A DNA stretch of 64,000 bases from an uncultured Candidatus Micrarchaeota archaeon (GTDB lineage Archaea; Micrarchaeota; Micrarchaeia; Anstonellales; Bilamarchaeaceae): assembly GCA_903835385.1 (NCBI GenBank), contig CAILMQ010000015.1:1252-65251 (forward strand), read 5' to 3'. Below, one piece after another: positions 1,120 to 29,329 of the stretch; the stretch's first letter is position 1; each line of letters starts with the position of its first letter. A program made the translations under genes and the position numbers. The notes under the pieces are model-generated. The model saw only the letters and a program-made list of their open reading frames with translations, did not search any database and was not told the origin of the DNA.

Positions 1120-2664
1120 ATGAATGAAACAATAAGAAAACAAAAAACAGAAAAACACGAGGTTGGAAGGACAAGCGGGCCGACGGGAAAGAGCCGGTTC
1201 GCTGGAAGGAATGTGCTTCTCTCAGCTGGTCTGGGCCTTGCGCTCACAGCGACGTGCGGCGGCTCCTCGAGTTCGCCGAATACAACCGATGCTGGAGCCT
1301 GCACGATGGTTAAGGGCACTGACGGCCTGAATACCTGCACTCCGGCGGATGTTTGTGAGCTCGGACTGGTTCCGGACAACCCAACAAGCGACGGCGGTAC
1401 GTCCAAGGCGGGATGCGTGCCGAAGCAGAAGAGGGATGCGTCTCCCGTAGAGGCTTCGCAGGGCGAGGTTTCGGAAGATGCAGAGGCGGCGGAAGTTCCA
1501 CCGATTGTCGATACTGCGCCTGTTTCACCGGTCGATGTGGCTGAACCGGATGCAAAGGTTGCTGTTGATACAAGTGTGGATGCGGGCCCTGTGTGCACTG
1601 TGAAAAAGGCGACCAGGGCTTACGTAAAGCTCGGTTCCAACTGGAGGATTGCCGGATACGCGTGCGACACCAATGGCAGCGAGTCCAAGATGGATGATGG
1701 CGTAACCGTAGAGAGGAAAACCGAGACAGGCGACTTCGAGACGTGCGCCGTCGCGGTAACCCCGGGCACGGCAACTTCGGTCACGGCAACTCCGAAAGGG
1801 GTCACTGTCACGTGCCCGACGGTAACGATACAGGCCGGTACCGGCGGATGCACACAGACCGCGGTTGAAGAGACCAGCGCGTGCGCCAATACCAACAGCG
1901 TACTCGTGACTGGCGGCACCACGGTCTCCGCGAACCTCGGTTCGAAGGCAGTGGTCAATGTGGCTGCGACACAGTCCCAGAGGATTTACCTGCCAAAGGA
2001 CTCAAGCTCCCAGGCGGGCAGCGAGGCCGGCACCGACAATCTCAACCTGGCAGGCACGCCCGTCACCGCGAAGTTAGCTTCGCTCGGTGTCGGTGATGAC
2101 GGCAAGGTCGTAGTTGCAGGCAAGGTCCCGGGCCCGACGGGCAAGACCACATGCGGCACTGCGGTGGGCGCTTCGCCTGTGCAAATAGGCGATGTCACGG
2201 TTTCCAGCGTCATCAGCGAGGCTGATGTGAGGGATGACTCGGCGTTCACGGCGGATATGGCCTACGACGCCAACGACTTTAACGGTGTTTCGGAAAACGG
2301 CGCGACGCTCAATTTCGGCGGCGTGCGCGTGACCGTGCCCGGCATAGTCGTGAGCGGCAATTCCGCGGCGGTCGTGCTCAAGGAAGCTGTCAGCTCGAAG
2401 AAACCCTGCGTGGTCCTGACGGGTGAGGGCAGCGATGTTGCGTGCGGCATACAGTACAATGCCAAGCCGGTGAGTGTGAATGCGGGCTACCACAAGAACA
2501 GCTGCGCAGTCAAGACCGGTGATGCGGGTGCCACGCAAACGACCGACACTGCGAAGGCAGGGCCGGTGGTTGACGCGGGCGCTCCTGATGCCGTAGCGGT
2601 GGGTGCGGATGTTTTCGCGCCGTCCGCTCCGGTTGAGGCGGGCGCACCGGCAGAAGCCGATTGA
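1120..2664 (+). CDS. secreted or lipobox-anchored Thr/Gly/Val-rich surface protein, hypothetical
   Basis: 514 aa. N-terminal basic region, then hydrophobic LLSAGLGLALTATCGGSSSS (lipobox-like LTATC). The rest is low-complexity T/A/V/G-rich. A T-rich terminator follows. Confidence 0.6.
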   Translation: MNETIRKQKTEKHEVGRTSGPTGKSRFAGRNVLLSAGLGLALTATCGGSSSSPNTTDAGACTMVKGTDGLNTCTPADVCELGLVPDNPTSDGGTSKAGCVPKQKRDASPVEASQGEVSEDAEAAEVPPIVDTAPVSPVDVAEPDAKVAVDTSVDAGPVCTVKKATRAYVKLGSNWRIAGYACDTNGSESKMDDGVTVERKTETGDFETCAVAVTPGTATSVTATPKGVTVTCPTVTIQAGTGGCTQTAVEETSACANTNSVLVTGGTTVSANLGSKAVVNVAATQSQRIYLPKDSSSQAGSEAGTDNLNLAGTPVTAKLASLGVGDDGKVVVAGKVPGPTGKTTCGTAVGASPVQIGDVTVSSVISEADVRDDSAFTADMAYDANDFNGVSENGATLNFGGVRVTVPGIVVSGNSAAVVLKEAVSSKKPCVVLTGEGSDVACGIQYNAKPVSVNAGYHKNSCAVKTGDAGATQTTDTAKAGPVVDAGAPDAVAVGADVFAPSAPVEAGAPAEAD

Positions 2665-2710: not shown

Positions 2711-3106
2711 CTACTCCTTGATGCCGAGGACTTCCCTGGCCTTGTCCATGTCGAACGACGCGGGCTTGAACGCGACTTCTGTGTAGTCGTTCTTCTTGGA
2801 GACTATGTAGAGCGATTCGAGGTTGACTCCCCTGTTGGCGAGCTTCCTCGTTATCTTGCCCAGCTCACCGGGCCGGTTCAGCATCTTTATCACGAGGATG
2901 TCGGACTCCTGGACCCGGACTTCGGGAATCTTGGAAAGCGCCTTGTTGGCGCTGGCCGAGTCGGCCGTGAGCACCCTGAAGAACGCCTTCTCGGCGAATC
3001 CGTAGCAGGATATCGCCTCGATGTTCACCCCGACGCCGCCGAGCGCTTCCGCGACCGTGGCGAGCGAGCCGACCTGGTTCTTCGCGGTAATTATGAGTTC
3101 TTTCAT
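2711..3106 (-). CDS. ACT-domain protein (two tandem ACT-like halves)
   Basis: 131 aa. MKELIITAKNQVGSLATVAEALGGVGVNIEAIS, then a second half ILVIKMLNRPGELGKITRKLANRGVNLESL. Both match the ACT beta-alpha-beta-beta-alpha-beta signature. Confidence 0.7.
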   Translation of the reverse strand: MKELIITAKNQVGSLATVAEALGGVGVNIEAISCYGFAEKAFFRVLTADSASANKALSKIPEVRVQESDILVIKMLNRPGELGKITRKLANRGVNLESLYIVSKKNDYTEVAFKPASFDMDKAREVLGIKE

Positions 3107-3185
3107 GGAAAACCACCGAAGGGATATCCAGCACAGAGATTAAATAGGTTGCGATGGAGAAGGGAGTAAAATATAGAGGAAAAGC

Positions 3186-3503
3186 ATGGCAGTGACTAAA
3201 AGGCGGATAATGGGGAAATTATCGGGCGTCGTGGACCCGGAACTCGGGGTTAACATAGTGGACCTCGGGCTGATTTACGAAGTCCGCGTGAAAAAGGCGG
3301 GAAGCGGGGGGAAGCAGAAGGCCGAGGTCGTGATGACGTTCACCACGCCCGCATGCCCGCTCGCGAACTACCTGCTCGGGCAGGTGGAATCCAGGCTGAA
3401 CGAGCTGCCGGACATCGACATAAGCGTCCGGGTGGTGTTCGAACCCGCCTGGAGCCAGGACAGGATGTCCGAAAAGGCGAAGATTAAACTTGGAATGAAA
3501 TAA
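3186..3503 (+). CDS. DUF59/MIP18-family Fe-S assembly protein (SufT/PaaD-like)
   Basis: 105 aa. VVDPELGVNIVDLGLIY and MTFTTPACPLANYL (conserved Cys) are characteristic of the family. Confidence 0.75.
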   Translation: MAVTKRRIMGKLSGVVDPELGVNIVDLGLIYEVRVKKAGSGGKQKAEVVMTFTTPACPLANYLLGQVESRLNELPDIDISVRVVFEPAWSQDRMSEKAKIKLGMK

Positions 3504-3536
3504 TAATCTGAAACTAATGATTGTTGAAGTGATGAA

Positions 3537-4892
3537 ATGAGGCTGACTTTTTACGGGGGCGCGGGCGAGGTGGGAAGGTCCTGCGTGCTCCTCGAGGACA
3601 ATAACAAGAACCTGATGATGGACGCCGGCATAAAGCTCGGCGAGAAGACGGAGTATCCGCTCATAGGCGACATGGAGCTGCGGCGCATCCATGACATAGC
3701 CATAACCCACGCGCACCTGGACCACTGCGGCTACCTTCCGCACGTGTATTCCAAGGACGCGAAGCCCAGGATATGGCTCACCAAGCCCACCCGCGACCTG
3801 ATGGGCATACTGCTTTCCGACTACCACAGGATACAGAATGACAAGATTTCGCGGAATTTCTCAGGCCGCGAGGAATCGCCGGATTCACCGCGCAAGGACA
3901 GGGGGACCCAGAGGCTTTTTGGCATAAAGGACGTGAACGCGGTGATGCAGGACGCCAGGATACTGGAGCCCGGCGAGGAGGCGAAGGGCTCGGACTTCAG
4001 GTTCACGCTGCACCAGACGGGCCACATCATGGGCAGCGCCATGATCAGGGTGCCGGATGCGGGTGGCATAATCTACAGCGGCGACATCTGCATGCGGAAA
4101 ACGCGGATACTGGACGGCTGCGAGCAGGGTCTCTCGGCGCGCACGCTCATAATGGAAAGCACGTACGGCAAGAAGGAGGATATCATACCCAGCTACAAGG
4201 AATCCGCCATGAAGCTGATAACTACGGTGAACAAGACACTCGACGCCGGGGGCCATGTGATAATACCGTCCTTCGCGGTCGGCAGGGGGCAGGAAATACT
4301 CATGATACTGGACGATTACATGCGCTCGGGCGCGCTCGCCCAGTCCAGGATATACATAGAAGGCATGATAGGCAAGGCCACGCGCATCTACAGGCACAAC
4401 GCCTACTATGCGAACGATGACATCAAGAGGCGCATACTGATGTCCGAGGACGACCCCTTCAAGTCCAGCGCGTTCCACACGCCGACCAGCAAGAACCGCG
4501 AGGACGTGCTGAGGGAGCCGTGCATAATCGTGACCACCTCGGGCATGCTGAGCGGGGGGCCGGTGCTGTTCTATCTGGAGAAGCTGGGCACGGACCCGAG
4601 GAACAAGCTCGTTTTCGTGGGCTTCCAGGCGCCGGGCACGCGTGGCGCGAAGATACTGGCCGGAGAGCGGAAGATACAGATAAAAGACAAGGAGATAGAA
4701 CTCAAACTCCAGGTGGAGCAGATAAAGATATCCGGCCACGCGGACTTCAACGAGCTGGTGCAGTTCGTGAAGGGCGTAAAGGGCCTGAAGCGCGTGTTCG
4801 TCATCCATGGCGAGGAAACCGACCTGCCGGAAGCGCTGGGGAACCAATACGAGGTCATAGTGCCGAAGCTGCTGGAGACGTACGGGGTATGA
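3537..4892 (+). CDS. metallo-beta-lactamase / beta-CASP ribonuclease (aCPSF2 or RNase J-like, no KH domains)
   Basis: 451 aa. HAHLDHCG motif 2, later SGDI, ESTYG, and a C-terminal ISGHAD...VFVIHGE beta-CASP/motif C region. Confidence 0.8.
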   Translation: MRLTFYGGAGEVGRSCVLLEDNNKNLMMDAGIKLGEKTEYPLIGDMELRRIHDIAITHAHLDHCGYLPHVYSKDAKPRIWLTKPTRDLMGILLSDYHRIQNDKISRNFSGREESPDSPRKDRGTQRLFGIKDVNAVMQDARILEPGEEAKGSDFRFTLHQTGHIMGSAMIRVPDAGGIIYSGDICMRKTRILDGCEQGLSARTLIMESTYGKKEDIIPSYKESAMKLITTVNKTLDAGGHVIIPSFAVGRGQEILMILDDYMRSGALAQSRIYIEGMIGKATRIYRHNAYYANDDIKRRILMSEDDPFKSSAFHTPTSKNREDVLREPCIIVTTSGMLSGGPVLFYLEKLGTDPRNKLVFVGFQAPGTRGAKILAGERKIQIKDKEIELKLQVEQIKISGHADFNELVQFVKGVKGLKRVFVIHGEETDLPEALGNQYEVIVPKLLETYGV

Positions 4893-4950
4893 TTAGGTTT
4901 TCTCATTAGCCGGTTATTAGCTGCCTTATTACTGTGAACCAAGGGAGCCT

Positions 4951-5152
4951 TAATGTTCGGCGTACCGAACATTAGGCGCCGCCCTATTGTCCGACCGATA
5001 AATCGACGCCTCGATTTATGGTCCATTGGTCGTTGCGACGACCAATCGGACGCATCGGACAATGGGGCACCGCGATGCTGCGGCATCGCGATTGTGTTCG
5101 GATTGCCGAACACGTGCGACGCAGACGAATGCTTGATATATGCTGCGTCAGC
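4951..5152. repeat. array of six short near-perfect inverted repeats (hairpins) plus one enclosing long-range helix
   Basis: HP1 4951-4974 (10 bp, loop CGTA). Helix 4981-4994/5055-5068 (14 bp, one G-U) encloses HP2 4998-5019 (9 bp, loop CGCC) and HP3 5025-5046 (9 bp, loop TGCG). HP4 5071-5090 (8 bp, loop TGCG). HP5 5094-5113 (8 bp, loop ATTG). HP6 5118-5149 (7 bp stem). Lies between convergent gene ends. Confidence 0.6.
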
Positions 5153-5219
5153 CGCTACGGGATTTGAAGAACAGCCTGCTGGCAAATGACTAAAAACAGG
5201 AAGAAAAAAGGTAAAACTA

Positions 5220-8200
5220 CTAGGAGTACGCCAGGCACTGGTATGTTGAGGCTCCGATGTCAATGGAGCACGACTTATCCTTGCCCACGATTGCCACGAG
5301 CTGTGCCGGCACGGTGGTGAACACCTGCACCCTGGTGGTCTTGCTGCCCGGGGAAGTGCCGGTGCTGAGCTGCCATATCACACTGTCGGGATTGCACTGC
5401 TTTAGTTTGCCCGGCGGCCCGCACATCACGCGGTAATAGCCCCTGCCCCCCTCGTCGAATATGGTGCAGTAGTCCGAGCTGGGCCCTGGCCTGCACCCGG
5501 GGCAATCCGGAGGATTTGCCTGCGTGCCGACGTCTATCTGGGTGAAGTTGCACGGCGCAGGCCTCATGTCGAACGCGCACGCCCAGAGCGTCGTGCTTAT
5601 GTTGTCCGTGGTCGCGGTATACACCGTGTCCGGCCCCCTGTCCGGGTTTATGCTGCCAATCACCTGGAAGAGCGGGTCCGGGAAAGGGTCCCACAGCACT
5701 CCGCTGCACGCGACCGGGGTGCCGTTGATTGTACAGCTGGTGTTGAATGTCTGGTTGTCCCCCAAAGACAGGCTTGCGGCCGGGGGGTTTATGGCGAGCG
5801 TGTTGTTCGGCGGAACGACGGTCAGGTTGGACGCGCAGGACACGTTCCCTACCGTGGCGTTCAGCTTGCCCGTGGTGCCGATGTCCGATATGGGGACCAC
5901 GGACGCGCCCGTGGACCCGGTGTCGAATAGTATGCCCTCCATGCCCTGCAGCTCCCAGCTTGCGCTTACGCATGGCACGGTGTTGTTGGTGTTGTTGAAG
6001 CACACCAGGCCGAATGCCGCCACCTCGAGCCTGCCCACGCTGGCCTCTGGCGGCGTCACGTTGCAGCCCATCACTCCCGGCACAGGCTTGGCGCCTACGG
6101 TTATTGATGTGAAATTGCACGGCGTTGGCGCCATGCCGGACGCGCACGCCCAGAGTTCAGTGGCCGTGTTGTCCACGGTCGCGGTGTAGTTCGTCATCGG
6201 GCCCGTATCCGGGCTTATCTCCCCGTCAACTGCGGGAAAGTCCGTGGGATTCCACTGCACTCCGGCGCATGCGACACTGTTGCCGACATGCGTGCAGTTT
6301 GTGTTGAATATCTGGCCGCCCATGAACGGCAGGTCCACTGACGGCGGATTTACCGCGATTGTGTTGGTCGGCGGAACCACGGTCAGGTCGGACGAGCATG
6401 AGACCGGCCCTATGGCCGCGCTCAGCGTGCCAGTGGTGCCGATGCCGGATGTCGTGAATATTGATGCGCCTGTGGGCCCGGTGTCGAACAGCCTGGCGTC
6501 AATGCCCTGCAACTCCCAGTCCACGCTGCCGCACGGCAGGGGATTGCCTGAATCATCAAGGCACTCGAGGCTGAATGGTGTTATTTCGGAGTAGCCCACG
6601 CTGGCAGGCGACGGAGTTATGATGCAGCTCGACACGCCCTGCACGCTTACGGGCTGGCCGCTGTCCGAGTATGCGCAGGACGCCTTGAAATCGCCGGTCA
6701 CGTCCGCGCTCACGTCTCCGGTTCCGGGTGCCGGGAACGTCACGTCCGCGCTCGCGTAATCGTTGGCTCCCAGGGTGCCGAAGTCCGGCGGCGTGATTGC
6801 CCACGCGACGCTGGAACCCGTGCACGGGCCCAGGTCTCCCTTGAGATGGGCGCACTGGACGCTAAATGTCCTGGTTTCGCCGGGGTGCACCGGCATCGTG
6901 CCGTCGGTGATTGCGCACCTGTCGCCCGGGCCCACGTCAACCTGCACCGCGTCTATGTTGCAGGCCGATGCCTGCCTTGCTGCCACATTGCATGCAGGCT
7001 GGTCCGAACTGAAGGAGAATGCGAGCTTGGCGCTGTAGCTGCCTTCGGCCGTGCCCGCAGGAACCGCGACCTGAACGTACAGGGTCCTGCTGCCGCCAGG
7101 GTTGACGGCTCCGGACGGGCCGAAGCCGTTGGACGGCACCGAGGTGCACGACGGCGGGTTCTGGCAGCACTCGGGGTTCGTGGACGGCCTGTCGCCCCCG
7201 CTCTGTGCGCACAGCATGTTGTTGAACGCGGCTGCGGCCAGTGCCGGATTGTCGCTGGTGACGCCGGTGACGTAATTGGCCACCTGGCCGGTGTCGCTTA
7301 TGGTGACGGGTATGACTGTGTAGCTGCCGGCCTGCATGGACAGCGGCTGCGCCCCGGAGAGCCCGCAGGAAAGCGCGTTCTGGCGGTTCTCCACCACTAT
7401 GTTATACACGTTCGTGCCCAGGGCGGCGTCGTATGGCGGTGCGCCTGCGCCTGCCTGGGCTGAAATCCTGGAGTAGACCTCCTCTCCCTGGTATTTGCCG
7501 CATACGGGGTGCCTCACGGTTGCCGCGCAGCCCTTGACCTCATAGGAATCCTTTATGGCATAGCTGCCCAGGTTGCTGAGCGGAACGGTGTTGTGGAATG
7601 ATAAGCCGCTGTCCGAAGGGGAAAGGCCGGGATAGGAGCCCGAGGGCGTTGTCGCCGAGGGCGTTCTCGTGCCCCAGCAGGTCACGGCAACTGTTCCCAG
7701 CCTGTTCGTGATTTGGGTGCCATAATTGTCATAGACGTCTATCTTTTTGTCATTGAGCGCGCCCTCGTGGCCCCAGCACGTCGGGTTGTTGTAATTGCAT
7801 ATGCTCACGGAGCTGATTGCATCGTAGTCTGCCTTGTTCCAGGACACCGGGAAATTGCCCCCTGTCGCAGAGGAAGCCCCCGGGGTGCATGTTTCCCAGA
7901 CCTCGGCAAATGCGTAGAAGTTCGGCGCGGACCATGAGCCGCTCATGGACGAATCCAGCGATGCGGTCGCGCCGGGGCACAGCACCGCGCCGTCGAGCGA
8001 GCCTCCTGAGCCGTACGAGAGCACCTTGGAGTCGTCAATGGAAAGCGTGGACGTGAAGGCGCCGCTGAAACCGGGCTTCAGGTTTATGAACGCATAGCCT
8101 GACGTGGTGTATATCTCGTAAAGGGGAGTGGACTGGTCGTTCCAGGAAAGCGTTTTCTGCTGGCTGGCTGGCCACGCCGCTCCGGCAAGGAGCAAAAAAA

Positions 8201-8237
8201 CGAAGATGGTTAGCGCTCTGGCATGCATTGGAATCAT
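5220..8237 (-). CDS. large secreted Cys-rich surface protein with Ig-like (Big-type) repeats and many N-glycosylation sequons
   Basis: 1005 aa. Signal peptide MIPMHARALTIFVFLLLAGAAWPASQ. Many paired Cys. Two tandem 187-aa repeats (aa 538-724 and 725-911). Dense NxS/T sequons. The start overlaps the upstream gene stop by 4 nt. Confidence 0.7.
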   Translation of the reverse strand: MIPMHARALTIFVFLLLAGAAWPASQQKTLSWNDQSTPLYEIYTTSGYAFINLKPGFSGAFTSTLSIDDSKVLSYGSGGSLDGAVLCPGATASLDSSMSGSWSAPNFYAFAEVWETCTPGASSATGGNFPVSWNKADYDAISSVSICNYNNPTCWGHEGALNDKKIDVYDNYGTQITNRLGTVAVTCWGTRTPSATTPSGSYPGLSPSDSGLSFHNTVPLSNLGSYAIKDSYEVKGCAATVRHPVCGKYQGEEVYSRISAQAGAGAPPYDAALGTNVYNIVVENRQNALSCGLSGAQPLSMQAGSYTVIPVTISDTGQVANYVTGVTSDNPALAAAAFNNMLCAQSGGDRPSTNPECCQNPPSCTSVPSNGFGPSGAVNPGGSRTLYVQVAVPAGTAEGSYSAKLAFSFSSDQPACNVAARQASACNIDAVQVDVGPGDRCAITDGTMPVHPGETRTFSVQCAHLKGDLGPCTGSSVAWAITPPDFGTLGANDYASADVTFPAPGTGDVSADVTGDFKASCAYSDSGQPVSVQGVSSCIITPSPASVGYSEITPFSLECLDDSGNPLPCGSVDWELQGIDARLFDTGPTGASIFTTSGIGTTGTLSAAIGPVSCSSDLTVVPPTNTIAVNPPSVDLPFMGGQIFNTNCTHVGNSVACAGVQWNPTDFPAVDGEISPDTGPMTNYTATVDNTATELWACASGMAPTPCNFTSITVGAKPVPGVMGCNVTPPEASVGRLEVAAFGLVCFNNTNNTVPCVSASWELQGMEGILFDTGSTGASVVPISDIGTTGKLNATVGNVSCASNLTVVPPNNTLAINPPAASLSLGDNQTFNTSCTINGTPVACSGVLWDPFPDPLFQVIGSINPDRGPDTVYTATTDNISTTLWACAFDMRPAPCNFTQIDVGTQANPPDCPGCRPGPSSDYCTIFDEGGRGYYRVMCGPPGKLKQCNPDSVIWQLSTGTSPGSKTTRVQVFTTVPAQLVAIVGKDKSCSIDIGASTYQCLAYS
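5505..6626 (-). repeat. intragenic tandem duplication, 2 x 561 nt (187-aa module)
   Basis: Module 1 (6066-6626) begins CIITPSPASVGYSEITPFSLECLDDSGNPLPCGSVDWELQG. Module 2 (5505-6065) begins CNVTPPEASVGRLEVAAFGLVCFNNTNNTVPCVSASWELQG. They are colinear to ...LWACA..PCNFT..I.VG. Confidence 0.8.
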
Positions 8238-10228
8238 CTCTCCTTCTTGTATATTCCCCTGTGCACGAAGTCCGAGACGTCGACATTGAATATCACCAGG
8301 ACGTTCCCCGGGCCGGTGAACGGAATGCCGGATATGGTCGCCGCCTTGCGGTAGCGCACTTCGGTCCCCATTCTGATGCCGAATAGCTTGACATCAGCGC
8401 CCCCTCCTATCGTGGATTCGGTTTTGACTCCCAGCGGAGTCGGCTCCCCTCCGGAACTCTGCACGTAGTAGAACTTCATGGGGAATGACTCGCCCTTGGC
8501 AGTGCTCGGGGTTATCCCGACTCCGGCGCGCCAGACGAGGTCTGCCAGTGGCTGCGGATAATCAGGGCTGCCTTTCTTGAATTCGCCGCCTATGTCCGCC
8601 ACTATCATGACCGGCCCCAGGCCTTTCAGGCGGCCGATACCCAGGCCGCCGGCGCCTGTGAGCGAGAACGAATTGCTGGGGGTCAGGAAGGAGCCCCTGA
8701 GCGCGTAGTAGAGCGGAAGTTTCAGGTATCCCGCGGTCCTGCCGCTCGCATCCACAAAGGACGCCTCTATGAGCGCCTGCGTCTTGCCCATGTTCATGAG
8801 CCGCGCCTGCCCGGTCGAGTCCCCGCTTTCCACCACGTCGTACTGCGACAGTGCGCCGATGTCGAGCTGAAGCGTCGCGTAGTCCCACGGATGATATTTG
8901 CCTGTGGCTCCGAGGCGGGCCGCCATCTGCTTGCCGGTGTAGCCGGTCGGCTTCATTATCAGGGTGTATATGGTATTTCCATTGGCGTCGGTGCCCGGTT
9001 TCAACTCGGGCTGGTACTGCTGCGACGTGACATGCGACACCCAGGCATGCGGCCCGAGCGTGAGCTTTGCGTTTTTGAAGCGGAACAGCTCCAGGTCCCC
9101 CCCCATGGTAAGCACGGAAATGGGTATGCTTGTTATCATCTGCGGGCATATTTTCCTGACGCCGTCCAGGATGGCGGATTTCAGAACCGACCCGTCGGGC
9201 ATCAGGTTCATGGCTTCGAGATAATTGCCCCTGCGGATTTGGTTCATGACGTCAACGACCTGCTGCCTGCCGCCCTGGCCGCTCGTATCAGTGGCGATGA
9301 GCTGTGTCACCAGGTTCCAGCGGGGATCGGTGGCATTGGTGGCATTGAGGTCGCCGCTTTGCCCAGTGGTCGTATTCAGCCAGTTCATGATGACAGCATA
9401 GTATGTGGTGCCTGCCGTGCTGTTCCTGTTTGGCGCGAAGTAACCGAGGAACATGTCCTTGCTGGCATTGCTCATTGTCGCCACGTCGTTAGGCCCGAAC
9501 ATCCTGGGAAGCACGATGGTCGGGGTTATGTCCGGAGCCTTGGGAGCCGTGCCCACCAGGCGGAATTCCCTCGGAAGGAGGTTTATCTCGGTACGCAGGG
9601 TCTTCGCACTTGCGCTTTTGGAGGATACTTCCTTTTCGACAGCCCCTTCGGCGTGGGCGCTGCTTATTTCGACTTCCACTTCATCCCCTTTGTCCGGAAC
9701 CGGGGTTTTCTCTGCAATCGGCTTCAGCTCGGGCTCGGGTTTTTCCGCAGCCTGCGGTTTCGGAATCACCAATGGCGTGCTGTTCACGAACGAGAGTTCG
9801 GTTGCGGTCAGCCTGCGGCTTATGTCTTTGGCGGCCTTGGTTTTTTTGAGTGCGTCCCCGAATTGGTCGTAGAGCTTCTGTATCTCGAGCAGGTAGAGGA
9901 GCGGCGCCTTGGCGAACGTCTTCAGCGTGCCCATCGCCTCCTGTATCTCCTTGATTTCCGAGACGTCCACCGTGACGTATCCTTTCGGAGCACTTAGCAG
10001 GTAAAGGTCCAGGTGCTGGCTCGGGCTGAGCTTGTCGTATATTCCCCGCTCCGTTGCATCGAATTGCCTCTTCTGCTTGAGCGTCAGGTTCGTTGTGGCG
10101 AGGCGCGCGAGCACCGCGTTTATGTCGCCGAGGTTTTTCACCGGGTCGGCGGAAAGCCTGGTCAGCTCTGCCAGGTCCTTGTTCACATTGCTTACACTAC
10201 CGGCCTTAGCGACGGTTGTTGATCCCAT
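8234..10228 (-). CDS. hypothetical 664-aa protein: helical N-terminus, acidic/Pro linker, beta-rich C-terminal half
   Basis: Long ORF with AGGTGA SD 6 nt upstream of the ATG. No signal peptide or TM seen. The C-terminus shows alternating hydrophobic beta-strand patterns (GADVKLFGIRMGTEVRYRKAATISGIPF...VLVIFNVDVSDF). No family recognised. Confidence 0.65.
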   Translation of the reverse strand: MGSTTVAKAGSVSNVNKDLAELTRLSADPVKNLGDINAVLARLATTNLTLKQKRQFDATERGIYDKLSPSQHLDLYLLSAPKGYVTVDVSEIKEIQEAMGTLKTFAKAPLLYLLEIQKLYDQFGDALKKTKAAKDISRRLTATELSFVNSTPLVIPKPQAAEKPEPELKPIAEKTPVPDKGDEVEVEISSAHAEGAVEKEVSSKSASAKTLRTEINLLPREFRLVGTAPKAPDITPTIVLPRMFGPNDVATMSNASKDMFLGYFAPNRNSTAGTTYYAVIMNWLNTTTGQSGDLNATNATDPRWNLVTQLIATDTSGQGGRQQVVDVMNQIRRGNYLEAMNLMPDGSVLKSAILDGVRKICPQMITSIPISVLTMGGDLELFRFKNAKLTLGPHAWVSHVTSQQYQPELKPGTDANGNTIYTLIMKPTGYTGKQMAARLGATGKYHPWDYATLQLDIGALSQYDVVESGDSTGQARLMNMGKTQALIEASFVDASGRTAGYLKLPLYYALRGSFLTPSNSFSLTGAGGLGIGRLKGLGPVMIVADIGGEFKKGSPDYPQPLADLVWRAGVGITPSTAKGESFPMKFYYVQSSGGEPTPLGVKTESTIGGGADVKLFGIRMGTEVRYRKAATISGIPFTGPGNVLVIFNVDVSDFVHRGIYKKER

Positions 10229-10394
10229 ATATAGTCACCTTTTAGAGAGTGAAAGCTACTGGAACGAGCGCGCTGACTAGCGGCGCCCTGGTATTGCCGA
10301 ATACCGTCGCTGGTGTCGAAAGGCTTGCAAACAACGCAGTTGCTGCCATCGCTTTCGCGGTTTTTTCTCTCCATCCCATTCATATCACCATGCA

Positions 10395-13300
10395 TCATTT
10401 CATTTTGAGTTTCCTGTGCTCGTACTCGTTCATGTACACGCCGGGCGGCCTGTCGTGCCCCCCGTTCGTAAGCTGCCTGGAGAAACTGTAGGAGGTCTGG
10501 TCCGGCCCGAGCTTTTTCGCCAGCTCGTCGCCGTCAAGGCGCACCCGGAACGCGTCCCGCAGCCATGGCACGCTGACTTCCGTGAAATGGAACTTGAATT
10601 CCGGCGCGTCTGTTTTCGGGTTCGGAACCACTTCGTAGACGTGCTCGAACACGAATCTCCTTATTCCTTTCTTTTCGAGTTCCGCGTCCGACGTCCTGGA
10701 AGCTGGGCCGTAGTCGTTCCATCCGGATTGCGCGTCAATGAATCCGACGAGCGCGCTCCTCTTATAGTCCCATTTCACATAGAAATACGCGGCCCTGCTG
10801 CTGTCGTCGCTGAGCCTCGCGATGGCCTTGACGCCGTGGGCCGTCTCGTTGTTGGACATCGCATAATAGCAGTGCACGGGGGACTTCATGTCTTCCTCGT
10901 ACGCCATGTAGGAGAACATCTTGCCTTTGAAAAGCGGCGCAAGCGGCGTCTTCGCGGACCATGACAGTACTGCGAACCTCTTGTCCTGGTTTTCGTAGTT
11001 GGGCCTGTCCATGGCGATTGAATACGCCACCTCGCTGGCCTCTGTTGGCTTCGGCACGGGCGGCACCACCGCCGGCTTCGCCGCCTTGTCCGCATCCTGA
11101 AGGTCCCGGACCGCAGTGGTGAGCAGCTGTATCGCCCTCACCGGGTTGGCCCACGCGCCGTCCACGGAACCGCTGCTAAGGTCTGCGGGCGTGTTGCGCC
11201 TGTAAACCGCGGCAAGGCCTCCCTTGCCGTCCTCTCCCATCACCAGCTTGTACTTGGCCCATGCGCGCTCGTGGAGAAGCCTGACCACGGGGTCGGTTTT
11301 CTCCGCCTCCACTATGCGCGCGGTGGCTCCGGACCCGTCCTGTTTCCTCTTCACCGTGTCCCATGCTGACGCGAGCTGGGACAGGACGTCGAGCAATGCT
11401 TCGTTGCCTGCTTCGACCGGCACGGCGTACTGCGCCTTGAGCGACGCCGGGGAAACCCTCAGCTGCCTCATGTCTATATTGGCGTATGCTTTTGCAACTG
11501 CGGCCTCGGCACGGACGACCGGCTTGAGATTGAGCTCCGGGAACGCGTATCCCTGCCTCTTGAGACCGGCCACGAACGGGGCCCAGACATCTTCGATGTA
11601 CGGCAGCATGCCCCTTGAAAGGTCGTCTATGGCTGCCGTGTCCGCATTCCTGCGGTAGCGCTGCTCTGTGCGCTTGAGCCCCTGCGGAACGGAATCGTCC
11701 ATGAGCTGGAGGGCCGCGGACCTGCCGGATTTGTCAGAAATCGAATCCAGCCAGGGGAAAAAGAGCGGCTTCCTTGCGCCCAGCGCTGCGACCAGTACGC
11801 TCTCCTTGTCGCGCAGGGACCCGTAAACGTCACTCACGTAGTCCTTCCTCTGCGCCGCAGAAATGTCTTGCCTGACGGTGCCGAGGAATACGATGTGTTC
11901 CCATCCAAGGAACGAGTTCTCCATGTTTATCATTGAGTGCGGATATACCGTCACAAGCGATTCCAGCGTGATGTCCGTCATGGTGGCGGAGTGGGCGTCC
12001 AGGTGGTCGGGATTGCCGAATGCGAGCCTGAACAGTTTCATCTCCGCCTCATAGGCGGCCTTCGCGTTCTGGAACTGGGGCGTGCCTTCCACGCCGGGCA
12101 CGAGCTTTGATGCCTTTTCGAGCGCGCTCTCTTTCTCCTGAAGGGCGAGCATGTGCGCGACACCGGCTTCCAGCGCCTCGCTGAGGCGGAACATCTCGTC
12201 CGGCGTGGTTCCCTTGGCCTGCGAAGCGCTCTTGCAGCGCTCTATGAGCTTGGCCACGGTGTCAAGAATCGGGCCCTTTTTCGCATTCCTCACCGCGTCC
12301 TCGGCATAGCCTATGAACTCGTCCAGGTCCTCCCTGGCAACCACCGGGGGGTCTTTTGTGAGGTTAGGGCTGGTGTTGGAGTGGTGTTCCCACCTGGCTT
12401 TGAGGAGGAACCGCGTCACCCTCGGGTCGATGACCTCGCCCGCCGCGGCGTTCTTCTCGAGTATGTGTTCGAGCGCCATCATGGCGTTCTTGCGCGCGTC
12501 TTCGGGTTTCTTTGTGGAGAGCAGGCTCGCCAGGTAGTAATTCAGCTCCTTCACTGCGGCAGCGTAGACTTTCTTGTCCCCGTGATTGCGCTTGTATTCC
12601 TCGGCCGCCGCCCTCGCCTCGGTGAGCGCCTGGAGCGCGCTCGCCCAGCTCTCGAGCCTTACCACGGCCATGCCTGGCACGGTCGTGCCTGGCGCACGGG
12701 CGTTGTTGGCCTCGTCCACGAGCTGCCGTATCGCCGTGACGCTGTCCCTCTTCAAATCGTATTTCTTGGCCTTGCTCGTTTTTTTGCCGTGAACGTTATC
12801 CTTATACCTGAGCGTGTATGAGCCTGTGAAATAAGACGCACTGATGCCGTCTATGACCTGTTCGCCTATGGCGCTGGCAAGGGCCCGCTGCTGTTCCGTA
12901 ATGCCCTCCTGGTAGGATGCGAACCTGGCGGACCGGTCGGCACTGGCCGCGGTTTCGGACTCTTCACTTCCGATTGTTTGGAGCCTCGGCACTGCCGATA
13001 GTTTTTTTCCGGTTTCCGCCCCGGCAGCTTCCCTTTTCGCTGCGGCCCTGGCGTCTTCAATTGACGCCGAAAGGACCCCGGCCCTGCGCCGTGCCGCTTC
13101 CACCTGCGCTTCCCTGTCATTGGCTGCGATTGCAGCTTTTGCCGGTGCTGAGGGCCTGGCAGCAGCTTCGTACTCTTTCTCCGATGCAGCGAGATCGCTC
13201 TCGAGCTTGGCAACCTGTGCTCTCGGTGAAGCGCCCAAAATCTCACCCTTAAGGACACGGTTGGCGGTCCCGAACACGCTCACGAAGCGCGCCGTGGGGC

Positions 13301-13526
13301 TGCCGCCCTTTGCGATACCGAGCTGTGCCAGGACGACGGTAAGTTCCACCACCTGCGGCATGTTCGGGGTTATCCCCTGGAGCCCTTTGGGAATGCTGGA
13401 ATCCATGGTAGAAAGAAGCGTTTTTATGCCGGCCCATTGTTCCTGCGCCATTTTTACGAGTGCGAGTTTTCCAGCCGCCTCTGCTTCCCCATCTGTTTTT
13501 GCCTGAGCAAATGCCTGTCTAGCCAC
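10395..13526 (-). CDS. hypothetical giant mostly alpha-helical protein (about 1044 aa; ORF open to 13721 = 1108 aa)
   Basis: Uninterrupted ORF 10395..13721. I favour the GTG at 13526, preceded by GAGGTG with a 6-nt spacer and a TATA-like ATTTATAAG at 13569-13577. Ala/Glu/Lys-rich helical body. Distinct beta-rich C-terminal ~230 aa after a Pro-rich linker. No family recognised. Confidence 0.65.
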   Translation of the reverse strand: MARQAFAQAKTDGEAEAAGKLALVKMAQEQWAGIKTLLSTMDSSIPKGLQGITPNMPQVVELTVVLAQLGIAKGGSPTARFVSVFGTANRVLKGEILGASPRAQVAKLESDLAASEKEYEAAARPSAPAKAAIAANDREAQVEAARRRAGVLSASIEDARAAAKREAAGAETGKKLSAVPRLQTIGSEESETAASADRSARFASYQEGITEQQRALASAIGEQVIDGISASYFTGSYTLRYKDNVHGKKTSKAKKYDLKRDSVTAIRQLVDEANNARAPGTTVPGMAVVRLESWASALQALTEARAAAEEYKRNHGDKKVYAAAVKELNYYLASLLSTKKPEDARKNAMMALEHILEKNAAAGEVIDPRVTRFLLKARWEHHSNTSPNLTKDPPVVAREDLDEFIGYAEDAVRNAKKGPILDTVAKLIERCKSASQAKGTTPDEMFRLSEALEAGVAHMLALQEKESALEKASKLVPGVEGTPQFQNAKAAYEAEMKLFRLAFGNPDHLDAHSATMTDITLESLVTVYPHSMINMENSFLGWEHIVFLGTVRQDISAAQRKDYVSDVYGSLRDKESVLVAALGARKPLFFPWLDSISDKSGRSAALQLMDDSVPQGLKRTEQRYRRNADTAAIDDLSRGMLPYIEDVWAPFVAGLKRQGYAFPELNLKPVVRAEAAVAKAYANIDMRQLRVSPASLKAQYAVPVEAGNEALLDVLSQLASAWDTVKRKQDGSGATARIVEAEKTDPVVRLLHERAWAKYKLVMGEDGKGGLAAVYRRNTPADLSSGSVDGAWANPVRAIQLLTTAVRDLQDADKAAKPAVVPPVPKPTEASEVAYSIAMDRPNYENQDKRFAVLSWSAKTPLAPLFKGKMFSYMAYEEDMKSPVHCYYAMSNNETAHGVKAIARLSDDSSRAAYFYVKWDYKRSALVGFIDAQSGWNDYGPASRTSDAELEKKGIRRFVFEHVYEVVPNPKTDAPEFKFHFTEVSVPWLRDAFRVRLDGDELAKKLGPDQTSYSFSRQLTNGGHDRPPGVYMNEYEHRKLKMK

Positions 13527-13568
13527 AGAGAACACCTCGTTTCTATTCTTTGTATTACCCCGACAACC

Positions 13569-13577
13569 CTTATAAAT
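13569..13577 (-). promoter_or_regulatory. candidate TATA box for the three-gene ORFan operon
   Basis: Minus strand ATTTATAAG, about 45 nt upstream of the proposed GTG start and about 25 nt upstream of the SD-containing leader. Confidence 0.35.
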
Positions 13578-13825
13578 CTGCTCAGGGAGGGGCAGGGTGC
13601 AGAAAAGCGCCACAGTGACAACCAACTGCCTAAACGTATGCCTGGGCCTGCCAGTCTTCCGGTACGGACTGCCCAAAGTAATGCTCCCTGCCTCTCCCAT
13701 TATTACACCACGATATTCCATTTATAACGAATATTTTAAAAAGGTGCTGCCGAATACACTAATGTAGAATAAGGATAACTTTAGGAATAAGTGTTTATAA
13801 ACGGATATCCCGCGGCGCCCTGCGC

Positions 13826-14129: not shown

Positions 14130-14314
14130 GCAGGGGTGGCGGAGTTTTATCCATTCGTGGATAGACCGTAACGGCCAAACGCGTCAGGTTCAGGTGGCTT
14201 TTTGCTCCTCGTTATCCGAGGGCAAAAACCCAGGAAAAAGGTCCTGAGTTCTTCTCGGGCCTTCCGAAGCCTGATGGCTTAGTGCCTTCAGGAGTTCAAA
14301 TCTCCTCCCCTGCA
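14130..14314 (+). tRNA. tRNA-Leu(CAG), interrupted by about 100 nt of intervening sequence (D-loop insert and long anticodon-loop intron)
   Basis: Acceptor GCAGGGG/CCCCTGC plus A73. T-arm AGGAG-TTCAAAT-CTCCT. D-arm GCG...GGCCAAA-CGC split by a ~27-nt insert containing hairpin TATCCA-TTCG-TGGATA. Anticodon stem TCAGG/CCTGA with loop TTCAGG. Long variable arm TGGCTTAGTGCCTTC. Followed by CTTTTT. Confidence 0.75.
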
Positions 14315-14632: not shown

Positions 14633-15292
14633 TTAATTTTTTTGGGTTTTTGACTTTTTTTCAGCGTTCCCGCGGTCCTGGGAGTGATGGGGCGCGCTCG
14701 CCTGGGTGTTTCCGGACGCGAGTCTGAGCCTGAGTTCGGCGTTCTGGCCCGCTATCCTGAGTTTCTCTTTCACGTTTTCCCAGCACGAGGAGACTTGCAG
14801 CAAGGGCCCCAAATCCATTGACTGGGCTGCCGCACTGTCCAATTTGTACGTGCCTGCCGGAATCATGCGGCCGGATTCGTCGGTTTTGAATGTGACCGTG
14901 CCTGACCGGTATCCTTCGGCATAGTTCATGCCTATCATATACGGGATGGGAGCCCCGAAACGGGCTGCCAGCTGAATGTCCTCGGGGGTTTCCCTTATTT
15001 TCGTGGTGCGGAACTCAACGCCTTTTTCGGTCCTGCCCACGAGCTCGAGGCCTGTCTCATCAGAACACAGTATCCCGACATTATCTTCGTTTGCAGTCTT
15101 TCCCTTTTTTACGGCCATCACGGCCGCTATCGCACCCACGGCAATGACGCCTATGGTCGCGTAAAGGCCGGTCCTGGACCTGTGCTCTTCGGACAGGGGC
15201 CCTATGCACCTCAGGCTTTTCTCCAGGGCCCTGCGCTCCTTATTGCTCAGCGGCCTTACTCCGGCACCGGTATGAACGTCTTTGAAGGTCAT
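14633..15292 (-). CDS. hypothetical single-pass membrane protein
   Basis: 219 aa. One TM (LYATIGVIAVGAIAAVMAV) and a basic C-terminal tail. No family recognised. Confidence 0.5.
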   Translation of the reverse strand: MTFKDVHTGAGVRPLSNKERRALEKSLRCIGPLSEEHRSRTGLYATIGVIAVGAIAAVMAVKKGKTANEDNVGILCSDETGLELVGRTEKGVEFRTTKIRETPEDIQLAARFGAPIPYMIGMNYAEGYRSGTVTFKTDESGRMIPAGTYKLDSAAAQSMDLGPLLQVSSCWENVKEKLRIAGQNAELRLRLASGNTQASAPHHSQDRGNAEKKSKTQKN

Positions 15293-16150: not shown

Positions 16151-17155
16151 ATGAACCTCGTATCCAAGGAAAATGGCGGGAACCTCGTCGTAGGGGAAAC
16201 GTTCAGGGGCAAGGCGAATCTCGCGAAAAGGCTCCATGCCACCACCCTGCGGCAGGGCCTGTTCGAGCATGCGCAAGGGCTCGCAAGAAAAGGCGCCGAC
16301 AGGATACAACGGATAGAGGATGCCGTGATTCTCAGAACCAAGGGGGAATACGCCATCGGAAAGCTGCTTTATTTAGAAGAGATGCACGGCGTGAGGGTGG
16401 GGCTTGTTGACGTGATTGAAGCCACTCCGATGGCTCCGCCGCTGGCGATATGCGTGCCGGATGTGCCGATGCTGTTCTTCTCCATAAACCCGCTTTTTGG
16501 GGATGATAAAAGCGCGGCGTGCTATCTTGAACTGCTGGGTGGCAAGGAGTTTTGCTATGGCAGGGAAAACACGCCGCATGTCCTGCCCCAAGCCATAAGG
16601 CGGGACCAGATGGAAACACAGGCACTGATGCGGCTCTGCAATGACACCGAAGCAGGCCTCATTGAATTGTACCTTGCATACCATAACTTTGCGAGGTTCA
16701 TGCACACGCTGCCCGACCAGAGCGAAAGGGGACTGGCCACTGGGTTCATAGAGGCGCATCTCCGCTACCAGCTCGCAATATCCCTTTTCATGTGCCATGA
16801 CCGCGCCCGCAGCGGAAAGGACCGGGAGGACCAGGCTGAGCTCATGGAAGAGGCGACCGCCGCGGCCATGCTGCTCTCGCATCCCAATTTCACGGTGGCA
16901 AAAATCATAGACCACGAGTGGGCCGTGGATGACGGTTCCCTGATTGATGGCGAGGTCGGCTTCGTCAAACGGCTTTTCCAGGGCCTTAAAAACCCCGAGA
17001 TGTTCAAGATGCCTTCGTCCGACATGGTGCTCTTTTCCCTTGAGTTCCTAACCGGCTGCCTCGGGAGAAATGAAGCTGGCGACAGGCTGTGGAACATGGA
17101 GCATCAGATTAGGGAGATTTCAAACGTGATATTCCGCGATTCCGGCACGGGTTAG
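16151..17155 (+). CDS. hypothetical protein
   Basis: 334-aa ORF with coding-like composition. No recognisable motif. Confidence 0.5.
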   Translation: MNLVSKENGGNLVVGETFRGKANLAKRLHATTLRQGLFEHAQGLARKGADRIQRIEDAVILRTKGEYAIGKLLYLEEMHGVRVGLVDVIEATPMAPPLAICVPDVPMLFFSINPLFGDDKSAACYLELLGGKEFCYGRENTPHVLPQAIRRDQMETQALMRLCNDTEAGLIELYLAYHNFARFMHTLPDQSERGLATGFIEAHLRYQLAISLFMCHDRARSGKDREDQAELMEEATAAAMLLSHPNFTVAKIIDHEWAVDDGSLIDGEVGFVKRLFQGLKNPEMFKMPSSDMVLFSLEFLTGCLGRNEAGDRLWNMEHQIREISNVIFRDSGTG

Positions 17156-17259: not shown

Positions 17260-17949
17260 ATGAAAACCACTCCGACACAAAGACTCGTCAAAAAAGCGAT
17301 TGCCAGGACAAGGAAGACCGGCTTCAGGCGAACCCATATTTCACTGGAACTGCTAAGGACAGAGCTGGCGGGCTGGAAAGGAGAGGCCGAAGGCGATGGG
17401 AAGCGTTCGGTTTCCAGTGCTGTTGCAACTGTGCGGAGAGACCACAAGAGGGATACCGAGGAAATAGAACGCAAGAGGGAGCATGCAACCGCAGATTCCC
17501 GGATGCCTTTGGGGGGCGATACGGTTGAACAGGTAGGTAAGGTTCACGTGATACCAATCAGTGAGGGAGGCAGATACGTAAGAGGCATGGATGTGAGGAT
17601 CACATCCGACAATACCCCGGAGTTCATGATCCAGACGACGCCTAAAAGAACCTATGAACGCAGGGCACTGAAACGTTACTTCCTGGCATTCGATTTGGCA
17701 GCCGCTGTGACTTTCGTGGCTGGCGCGGCCAGGCATTTGAGTAACTATAGAAATGCCGCATACACGCTGCTTGCAGGGGCCATTGCAGTCGCAGCAACGA
17801 AAGCATTTAACGGGATTCTTAGGTCTGACTTGTTCACCCTTGAGGAATTCAATCGCAGGGTGGTGAAAGCCAGCGGCGCCGTGGAGTCCGCCCTGAAAAG
17901 CATTGAACGGGAAATTGAAGGCAGTGCAACCACGGATGCGAAAAAGTAA
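17260..17949 (+). CDS. hypothetical membrane protein with basic N-terminal region
   Basis: 229 aa. Two hydrophobic helices (YFLAFDLAAAVTFVAGAA, AYTLLAGAIAVAATKAF). Confidence 0.5.
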   Translation: MKTTPTQRLVKKAIARTRKTGFRRTHISLELLRTELAGWKGEAEGDGKRSVSSAVATVRRDHKRDTEEIERKREHATADSRMPLGGDTVEQVGKVHVIPISEGGRYVRGMDVRITSDNTPEFMIQTTPKRTYERRALKRYFLAFDLAAAVTFVAGAARHLSNYRNAAYTLLAGAIAVAATKAFNGILRSDLFTLEEFNRRVVKASGAVESALKSIEREIEGSATTDAKK

Positions 17950-22932: not shown

Positions 22933-23153
22933 GGTGAGGGGCATAGTCTGCCTTCTGTGTCCCGGAAACCGGGGCGGCATTATACTAAGCACCGGAAAAC
23001 CGGCTTGCTCCGTCATCAGGAGGGAAACGCTCGTTTCATCCCTTGCGGGTATCGTTTCTGTACCGCTTCCCAGGCCCTTAAAGCCTGTGCCCCCTCGCGG
23101 AGGGCAGAACTTCCTCACTTCCTTGCGGAAGCGTGAGCCGCCTGCCCCTCACC
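22933..23153 (-). ncRNA. rnpB: RNase P RNA candidate (compact, about 221 nt)
   Basis: Minus strand. P1 GGTGAGGGGCA/TGCCCCTCACC. P2 GGCGGC/GCCGCC. P3 hairpin TCACGCTTCC-GCAA-GGAAGTGA. CR-I-like GAGGAAGTTCTGCC pairs with the CR-V-like ACAGAAGGCAGACTA to form a P4 with a bulged U. Internal GNRA hairpins. No ORF. Confidence 0.65.
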
Positions 23154-28775: not shown

Positions 28776-29329
28776 CCCATTACCGCTCCCGTGGCAGCAT
28801 CAACTTTGCACACATCCTGGCCGGCTATCACGGTCCAGACGGGAACTCCGCTCTCCATCTCAAGCGTGCACTGGCCACCGTGGCCGCACGCTTTTGTCGC
28901 CACTGCGCTGTCCTGCCACTGGGCCGGAAGCAGGCGCCGGGCCTGGTATTGGACGTTCCGCGCGTTCAGTTCGGGATCCGGCACCGTAACCGCGTAACCT
29001 GTCATGGCGGCAACCGAATTGAAATAGTACTGCCATTGCCCAGCAGTGCCGTCCTGGGCGCAATCGCCATAAATTGAAACGAGCTTGGAATCCTGCACGA
29101 GCTTCACGGCCGCCGCGGTCGCATTTGCGACTCCGTCCCGGGCTGCGAACGGGGTGGCTGGCGCTTCAATAACGTTGCCAGGGCCCGGCGGTGTTGCTCC
29201 CGGGTTGGCGGTCAGGTTCTCCTGAATCGTTATGTTGGCGCCGCTTTGCGGCACGGAGGGCCCGGTGCATCCCATTACCGCAAGCAGCATCATCCCCAGC
29301 AAAAATAAGGCAATTTCCCGCATAATCAT
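28772..29329 (-). CDS. hypothetical secreted or lipobox protein co-transcribed with the CARDB/PKD giant
   Basis: From Met MIMREIALFLLGMMLLAVMGC (lipobox-like). 4-nt ATGA overlap with the downstream gene. Confidence 0.5.
   Translation of the reverse strand: MIMREIALFLLGMMLLAVMGCTGPSVPQSGANITIQENLTANPGATPPGPGNVIEAPATPFAARDGVANATAAAVKLVQDSKLVSIYGDCAQDGTAGQWQYYFNSVAAMTGYAVTVPDPELNARNVQYQARRLLPAQWQDSAVATKACGHGGQCTLEMESGVPVWTVIAGQDVCKVDAATGAVMG

Follow-up and report, generated by a model that had tools for sequence, protein, structure and literature searches.

Which function is served by a row of very large genes that match no known protein family, and on which side of the cytoplasmic membrane do their products act? 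This question is raised by a locus of an uncultured Candidatus Micrarchaeota archaeon, situated in a stretch of 64,000 nucleotides (contig CAILMQ010000015.1 of assembly GCA_903835385.1, positions 1,252 to 65,251) that was analyzed at its full length and is called the window below. The locus contains three large genes, designated g1, g2 and g3. In the original prediction the products of g1 and g2 were regarded as two cytoplasmic partners that assemble or export a single adhesin, the product of g3. The present analysis retains the functional link between the three genes and abandons the cytoplasmic picture. Together with the mini-gene p45 between g1 and g2, the three genes form an operon specific to one clade of Micrarchaeota, a group of DPANN archaea, and with a probability of about one half its products make up an extracytoplasmic envelope or attachment complex.

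The gene map of the locus is given in Table 1. Three large co-directional open reading frames (ORFs) were confirmed on the minus strand, with ORF bounds at 5220-8237, 8234-10228 and 10395-13721, as was the 4-nucleotide overlap of g2 and g3. All three are real genes, since each has orthologues in public assemblies, and pairwise ratios of nonsynonymous to synonymous substitution rates (dN/dS) range from 0.31 to 0.47. For g1, starts at 13721 or 13526 had been proposed, neither of which is supported. The orthologue alignment places the start at the methionine M8 at 13700 (MGEAGS..., 1101 amino acids), in agreement with the ENA-called protein P0005 and with the N-termini of the orthologues. The 166 nucleotides between g1 and g2, formerly taken for a spacer, are occupied by the conserved ORF of p45 (10242-10379). 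The spacer upstream of g1 harbors a conserved CCGTTTATAAAC at about 13794-13801, which resembles a B recognition element and TATA box, and a conserved TTTTTAAAATA..TTATAAAT at about 13720-13742; the ATG is preceded by GGTG. The TATA-like blocks are invariant in an alignment of five lineages and occur only upstream of g1. Judged by the archaeal TATA consensus they represent a putative promoter, and due to their restriction to this position g1-p45-g2-g3 looks like one operon. Starts led by Shine-Dalgarno sequences, a gap of 13 nucleotides between p45 and g2 and the overlap of g2 and g3 point to coupled translation.

For g1, g2 and g3 nothing above threshold was found in Pfam, NCBIfam, PHROGs or the PDB sequences, including searches with family profiles; the PDB sequences were searched with single sequences and with profiles of 8-12 sequences. 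PADLOC, which covers anti-phage defence, returned 0 matches for g1, g2, g3 and the small upstream gene s. The earlier statement that no known family is recognizable is thus borne out by all of these searches. AlphaFold2 models of g1 and g2 were built on alignments of 4 sequences and are poor, with a mean predicted local distance difference test score (pLDDT) of 49 for g1 and 39 for g2. Neither model gave a Foldseek match against the PDB with E<=0.001; the matches to CAMP-factor and cyanase are not credible. The structural comparison that had been suggested for these two proteins, as well as the profile searches, thus produced no assignment to a well-known family, with models of poor quality. 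No paralogues of g1, g2 or g3 occur within the window, and no description of the operon was found in the literature searched. The four proteins encoded by g1, p45, g2 and g3 are new families that are confined to a rare clade of Micrarchaeota.

The archaeal origin of the window is documented by an archaeal RNase P RNA at 22933-23153 and by genes for PurP, an undecaprenyl-diphosphate-synthase-type protein, the thermosome and SRP54. Relatives of g2 were retrieved in two ways: 5.8 billion protein clusters, searched from k-mer seeds, yielded three, and 1.84 billion cluster representatives, searched exhaustively with a HMMER profile, yielded nine matches. Only 1-3 sequences fall into each 90% cluster of the g2 family, and the sole species-representative genome with a relative is OY970229.1, a 1.57-Mb chromosome of Candidatus Micrarchaeota. 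In the following, related loci are numbered with the prefix L and proteins with the prefix P. The gene order g1-p45-g2-g3 is kept in L002, L003, L004, L005, L006, L009, L011, L013, L014 and the contig of P0017, as scored on contigs long enough to show the neighbours; in L006, L009 and L012 the contig ends within g1. The check for conserved synteny that had been proposed therefore came out positive, with the order g1-(small ORF)-g2-g3 in all related contigs that span the cluster. Synteny persists down to about 20% identity of g2 and across lineages with a guanine-plus-cytosine (GC) content of 37-60%, including those with 37-41%. A convergent Beta-CASP gene follows g3 wherever the contig extends far enough (L002, L003-L006, L009, L011, L013 and L014). 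Even P0019, a g2 relative that is about 20% identical (E=2e-4), lies in the same chromosomal neighbourhood with Beta-CASP, ACT, PIN_9 and Peptidase_M24 genes. The conserved order and neighbourhood indicate a vertically inherited operon and not a mobile element.

The operon evolves fast. The nucleotide identity to L002 is 72% within the cluster and 84-87% in flanking housekeeping genes, and the same figures are given for OY970229.1. Together with the dN/dS values of 0.31-0.47 and the length variation of g1 and g3, this pattern is in keeping with surface proteins. In most lineages the isoelectric points (pI) are about 9-10 for g1 and g2 and about 4-4.7 for g3, i.e. the proteins carry complementary charges. 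The synteny, the tight packing of the genes and the lack of any known family support the part of the original prediction according to which g1, g2 and g3 are functionally linked and not unrelated ORFans.

The localization of the products was assessed gene by gene. g1 consists of a signal or anchor segment (residues about 14-40), an alpha-helical region (about 60-875), a Pro-rich linker (about 876-892) and an alpha/beta C-terminal domain (about 893-1101). g1 had been described as an Ala/Glu/Lys-rich helical protein that ends in a Pro-rich linker plus a separate C-terminal domain. Both the AlphaFold2 secondary structure and the alignment agree with this, the domain measuring about 210 amino acids. 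The protein had also been described as free of a signal peptide, which does not hold. The N-terminus of every orthologue comprises a basic stretch followed by a hydrophobic segment of 14-18 amino acids, exemplified by RHTMKRVIARLICLGAFAGAYLMG in L011, and in L013 this part is a textbook cleavable signal peptide with cleavage between ..SSMPMVDAWA and QD. The C-terminal domain is the sole part that can be aligned across all lineages. The orthologues measure 722-1214 amino acids, and the variation sits in the helical part, which ranges from about 500 to about 1000 residues and contains the conserved motifs ENSF.GW and AWANPVRAIQLL..A..LQDA. The Pro-rich linker reads AVVPPVPKP in the window and measures about 45 residues in L014.

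The mini-gene p45 encodes MGWREKTAKAMAATALFASLSTPATVFGNTRAPLVSALVPVAFTL, a protein with a basic N-terminus, a hydrophobic core and the conserved tail RAPL..P.PV.F. It has a Shine-Dalgarno sequence of its own, GGTGAT. In all lineages the architecture is that of a signal peptide with a short conserved tail, and the L013 protein reads ..IPMAHA before and QDVKKNQVII after the predicted cleavage site. p45 is present in every related locus and has been gene-called as a protein of 46-50 amino acids in L013, L014 and the P0017 contig. The nucleotide conservation of the region between g1 and g2 exceeds that of the surrounding coding regions, even where the g1-g3 proteins are only 27-43% identical. This is the case in L011, the p45 C-terminal part of which is about 70% identical to that of the window. 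The synonymous substitution rate (dS) of p45 is 0.15-0.19 compared to 0.68-0.80 in the neighbouring genes, and this four- to fivefold reduction indicates an extra constraint at the nucleotide level. A hairpin covering the Shine-Dalgarno sequence and start codon of g2, as modelled by RNAalifold, is not supported: it consists of invariant pairs without covariation, and single-sequence folds did not exceed shuffles in stability (z -0.7 to -1.0). A fusion of p45 and g2 by recoding was rejected on the basis of the frame relation of the two genes, which differs by lineage (+1, in frame with stops, a 4-nucleotide overlap or a 6-nucleotide gap).

The relation between p45 and g2 is illuminated by P0021, the most distant g2 relative, which is encoded in L012. 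At its N-terminus this protein has a signal peptide in the same frame (MNGMRTRKTRALVVATVLLFKSMLPLTSAAE..), a separate small ORF ahead of it is absent, and the upstream neighbour terminates in a recognizable C-terminal domain of g1. Judged from this arrangement, the fusion hints that p45 may supply membrane targeting for g2. The signal or anchor segment of g1, the signal-peptide-like p45 and the signal peptide of P0021 are at variance with the view that two proteins in the cytoplasm assemble or export a single adhesin; they imply that most or all products of the operon are probably extracytoplasmic.

The g2 protein of the window begins, like all close orthologues, with MG..TVA.. and has no hydrophobic segment or signal peptide; a signal peptide occurs in the distant P0021 alone. 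The window g2 is led by the Shine-Dalgarno sequence AGGTGA. The parts described earlier, namely a helical head, an acidic Pro-rich linker and amphipathic strand patterns in the C-terminal half, could be reproduced. The head spans residues 12-148, the acidic and Pro-rich disordered linker about 150-240, and a second helical region at about 255-360 is followed by a C-terminal region of about 290 amino acids. Inspection of the latter by eye shows about 12 amphipathic segments that resemble strands, each hydrophobic on one face, and turns rich in Gly. A beta-barrel resembling outer-membrane proteins (OMPs) is a weak, low-probability lead for this region. The family member P0015 matched OMP_b-brl (PF13505) with E=8e-5 and 23.3 bits, which is below the cutoff of 28.7, and P0017 gave a sub-threshold match to OpcA (E=0.1). 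The distant members P0018, P0019 and P0021 end on F or W right after the last strand (..VGVGFRF, ..YFKLEW and ..LKEFF). The barrel is held at low probability because g2 of the window has no signal peptide and ends in ..VIFNVDVSDFVHRGIYKKER, a basic tail of 10 amino acids after the last strand that lacks the terminal aromatic residue of a beta-signal, and because the profile comparisons were negative. When a profile built from 14 sequences of the C-terminal domain was compared by hhalign with OmpX, OmpA and OmpW of E. coli, single-sequence targets that afford low power, the probabilities were <0.1%, and no PDB barrel was found by the g2 family profile. No OMP_b-brl match was obtained for 11 of the 12 g2 members, the window protein included, in the Pfam scan. 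The AlphaFold2 model leaves the C-terminal half unfolded (pLDDT about 22). In a tblastn search residues 557-659 of g2 aligned to window positions 18518-18796 (+) with 27% identity over 104 amino acids (E=0.001), probably by chance.

The N-terminal signal peptide of g3 was confirmed, with cleavage between ..AAWPA and SQQ. The Cys-rich N-terminal region (residues about 25-430) is conserved and contains invariant Cys. It is followed by repeats of modules of about 90-95 amino acids, with a tandem duplication of 187 amino acids (residues 538-722 and 725-908) that is 55% identical. The number of modules varies among the orthologues, which measure 743-1011 amino acids and share the conserved end YQC[LI].YS; neither a transmembrane segment nor a sorting tag is present. 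Two figures of the original prediction had to be revised. The protein contains 41 Cys and not about 60, and the N-glycosylation sequons, described as dense, number 15 N-x-S/T compared to 11.5 expected from the composition, all of them within residues 647-897. The sole Pfam trace is NPCBM_assoc (E=0.1, 13.2 bits compared to a cutoff of 24.4). hhalign of the g3 profile with a large protein of the window that carries CARDB and PKD domains aligned the signal peptides alone. g3 may be described as a putative Ig-like adhesin.

Export signals predicted from the sequence are thus present on g1, p45 and g3, and a complex of the products with the following topology is conceivable. g1 would be exported, or anchored via its N-terminal hydrophobic segment, and would form a long helical tether that leads over the Pro-rich linker to a globular docking domain. 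p45, made just before g2, is a probable tether or targeting factor that brings g2 to the membrane. g3 would be secreted via the Sec pathway and, as an acidic, disulfide-rich protein built from repeats, provide the exposed distal part. As g3 has no anchor of its own, it would have to be held by a partner, likely the basic g1 and/or g2, in a non-covalent manner. Attachment to, or contact with, a partner cell or surface appears to be the likeliest role of such a complex, by analogy with the lifestyle of cultivated DPANN archaea, which is episymbiotic (PMC11329633; bioRxiv 10.1101/2023.10.27.564410).

Several points weigh against this interpretation. The argument for attachment is one of lifestyle analogy only, and no family or fold assignment was obtained, the models of g1 and g2 being poor and the Foldseek results not significant. 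g2 may be cytoplasmic, as none of its close orthologues has a signal peptide. The N-terminal segment of g1 could be either a cleaved signal or a stable anchor, and if it is cleaved, no product of the operon is demonstrably anchored in the membrane. The fusion in P0021 comes from a single 4-kb short-read contig, where an assembly or sequencing error could have created it. Finally, g3 of L014 is basic (pI 9.2), so the complementarity of charges is not universal.

Comparison with known systems places the operon in kind nearest to archaeal envelope protein pairs that consist of a stalk and a canopy or adhesin, which it most resembles. SlaA and SlaB of the Sulfolobales are encoded by adjacent genes and comprise a coiled-coil stalk and a large, beta-rich, glycosylated canopy protein. 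The operon shares with them the combination of a helical exported or anchored protein and an acidic, repeat-rich, sequon-bearing secreted protein without its own anchor. However, sequence or profile similarity is lacking, p45 and g2 are additional, g3 is Cys-rich and the clade is rare. Furthermore, the hydrophobic segment of SlaB is C-terminal, whereas that of g1 is N-terminal. In its layout g1 is reminiscent of TolA and TonB, tethers that span the envelope of Gram-negative bacteria: a membrane segment at the N-terminus is followed by a long spacer, helical with much Ala, Lys and Glu and also Pro-rich, and by a small globular domain at the C-terminus. The next large gene, g2, may encode a beta-barrel-like protein. 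This likeness is architectural only: g1 has no Pfam match to TonB_C or TolA_C, archaea are not known to have an outer membrane, and among the ORFs scanned with Pfam to either side of the cluster none matched MotA/ExbB or ExbD, which would indicate ExbBD or TolQR motor genes. The resemblance of g2 to OMPs (PF13505, OpcA) consists in one sub-threshold match of a family member, amphipathic Gly-rich strands and three aromatic C-termini; it is opposed by a score below the Pfam cutoff, the absence of an hhalign signal, the absence of a signal peptide in the window protein and the archaeal nature of the organism. For Nanobdella aerobiophila, surface proteins with Ig and PKD folds have been predicted and are presumed to mediate symbiont-host contact (bioRxiv 10.1101/2023.10.27.564410). 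Like these, g3 is specific to DPANN archaea, secreted, equipped with many sequons, composed of repeated modules that may be beta-sandwich-like and invisible to homology annotation. In contrast to them, it belongs to a conserved four-gene operon that also encodes a putative helical tether, a mini-protein and a beta-rich protein lacking a signal peptide, and no homology was detected.

The kinship with envelope protein pairs raises the alternative that the operon encodes a structural S-layer or sheath of two or three components similar to SlaA/SlaB, with g1 as the stalk and g3, possibly also g2, as the canopy, and not a device for host contact. This appears unlikely. It would fit such a layer that one operon encodes both a long helical protein, exported or anchored, and a large secreted protein that is acidic, beta-rich and sequon-bearing, and that this operon is conserved and vertically inherited; a glycosylated S-layer is known in Micrarchaeota (bioRxiv 10.1101/2021.04.28.441871). 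However, the protein described in that work has recognizable S-layer domains and almost no sulfur-containing residues, whereas g3 contains 41 Cys and no S-layer domain was matched in g1, g2 or g3 by Pfam or NCBIfam. The family is also extremely rare, each cluster holding 1-3 sequences out of 15 billion proteins, and most Micrarchaeota lack it, which would be surprising for a protein that forms the main wall in this phylum, and the CARDB/PKD protein represents another large surface protein encoded in the window. Quite unlikely is a system that perforates membranes or forms a channel, in which the C-terminal half of g2 as an OMP- or pore-forming-toxin-like barrel, delivered by the g1 tether and targeted by the g3 adhesin, would insert into the symbiont envelope or the host membrane and act as the conduit for nutrients required by DPANN symbionts. 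The OMP_b-brl and OpcA traces, the strand-like segments of g2 with their hydrophobic/polar dyads and Gly-rich turns, and the three distant members with a terminal aromatic residue are in line with a channel, as are CAMP-factor pore-forming toxins as the best, non-significant Foldseek matches of g1. But the Pfam match stays below the gathering score and concerns one of twelve members, the dyad patterns are equally compatible with soluble beta-sandwiches, and the g1 model is too poor to give its Foldseek matches meaning. The hhalign and PDB results, the missing signal peptide and the basic tail of the window protein also argue against a channel. To our knowledge archaea have neither a BAM-type insertase nor an outer membrane, which likewise counts against it. 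Very improbable, finally, is a more specific form, in which g2 would be an archaeal membrane beta-barrel whose signal peptide has been split off into the translationally coupled p45 and guides g2 in trans into a membrane or through it, and would form with g1 and g3 the channel that links the symbiont to its host. Sub-threshold OMP matches, the aromatic C-termini of distant members, the P0021 fusion without p45 and the unusually strong conservation of p45 could be cited in its support.

Another explanation stays close to the original prediction and takes g1 and g2 for cytoplasmic or membrane-proximal chaperones, or export and assembly factors, dedicated to g3. The signal-less g2 of the close orthologues, the opposite charges of the basic g1 and g2 and the acidic g3 and the tight operon linkage would suit such helpers, which are nevertheless decidedly improbable. 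The signal or anchor segment of g1 is conserved and is a classical cleavable one in L013, and the distant g2 relative P0021 bears a signal peptide. Moreover, g1-g3 show no match to an ATPase, a transporter-type bundle of transmembrane segments or a chaperone family, and the ordinary Sec signal peptide of g3 makes a dedicated exporter unnecessary. Extremely improbable is a domesticated remnant of a virus or mobile element, comprising a tape-measure-like helical protein, a baseplate protein and a receptor-binding protein. Size and order of the genes loosely recall a tail module (long helical, mixed alpha/beta and repeat-rich binding protein), the proteins are ORFans that evolve fast, and the cluster of L001 and L005 has integrase-bearing elements beside it. 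These elements start exactly at the 3' end of the upstream tRNA-Leu(CAG) gene, and a second element of L001 starts at the 3' end of tRNA-Leu(TAA). They are therefore tRNA-targeted insertions outside the cluster and not part of it, and a mobile-element origin of the cluster was rejected on this ground. PHROGs gave 0 matches, and no relatives of g2 or g3 were found among the 2.9 million contigs of IMG/VR. There is no capsid, portal or terminase gene nearby, where the neighbours are housekeeping genes, and the chromosomal position beside Beta-CASP, ACT and PIN genes is constant across a GC range of 37-60%. Tail proteins of a virion would not be expected to carry Sec signal peptides like those of g1, p45 and g3.

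The surroundings of the operon contain further features. The upstream gene s encodes a zinc-ribbon-like protein (MFDGDRACNLCGK...), with no more than sub-threshold traces of zinc fingers in Pfam; in the mechanical ORF list it is merely contained in a longer ORF of 99 amino acids. Orthologues of s are about 90% identical in L002, L003 and L005 and recognizable in L011, and with a dN/dS of 0.05-0.10 the gene is far more constrained than the operon behind it. Ahead of g1 in L013 and L014 no copy was found, so s stands outside the universal core.

Table 1. Features of the operon and its surroundings; coordinates refer to the window unless a related locus is named.
Feature	Position	Strand	Remarks
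g1	10395..13700	minus	1101 aa, pI 9.0
p45	10242..10379	minus	45-aa mini-protein
g2	8234..10228	minus	664 aa, pI 9.1
g3	5220..8237	minus	1005 aa, pI 4.3
s, CxxC...CxxC zinc-ribbon-like protein, 54 aa	13826..13990	minus	upstream of operon, same strand
promoter-bearing spacer before g1	13701..13825	minus	TATA-like blocks
integrase-bearing elements	L001 912-6095 and 20523-21977; L005 about 2876-9408

The tRNA-Leu(CAG) gene of the window (14130-14312, +) was not detected by ARAGORN or Rfam. Relative to the uninterrupted orthologue in L001, L002 and L005 it contains two insertions, one of about 27 nucleotides in the D-arm region and one of about 74 nucleotides just 3' of the anticodon, and L003 contains the shorter one only. 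Judged by these insertions it looks like a multi-intron archaeal tRNA. In L001 and L002 the 14.4-kb segment between the two tRNA-Leu genes is 100% identical. As both come from the same sample, this identical core indicates that they are strain variants which differ by the integrase-bearing insertions. One of the integrase-bearing elements also carries a reverse-transcriptase gene (RVT_1), with an MmeI-type restriction-modification gene beside it. The CARDB/PKD protein mentioned above (1196 amino acids, 25185-28775, -) has seven CARDB and two PKD domains and an N-terminal signal-like sequence. Its gene adjoins that of SRP54 (23799-25121), and an ORF of 205 amino acids without a Pfam match (28772-29389) overlaps its start. 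Further ORFs without Pfam matches are located nearby at 1120-2664 (+), 14633-15292 (-), 16151-17155 (+) and 17260-17949 (+). The first of these, with 514 amino acids, has counterparts of equal size, also without Pfam matches, at the same position in related loci.

For the annotation of this genome the analysis adds a 45-amino-acid gene, a 54-amino-acid gene and an apparent two-intron tRNA, all of which had been missed. A conserved signal-peptide-like mini-gene ahead of a signal-less partner poses a puzzle of cell biology; if the split-signal barrel were true, it would mean an archaeal porin-like protein and a trans-acting signal peptide. Even if the operon encodes only a lineage-specific component of the cell wall, four new protein families are gained. 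The ways in which DPANN archaea attach to hosts and obtain resources from them are an open question, and published studies of surface proteins and by cryo-ET state that the molecular players have not been identified (PMC11329633; bioRxiv 10.1101/2023.10.27.564410). With four co-inherited, co-translated and mostly exported proteins that have no relatives outside one clade of Micrarchaeota, and with the variable lengths and rapid evolution to be expected of a structure for surface contact, the operon described here is a concrete candidate.

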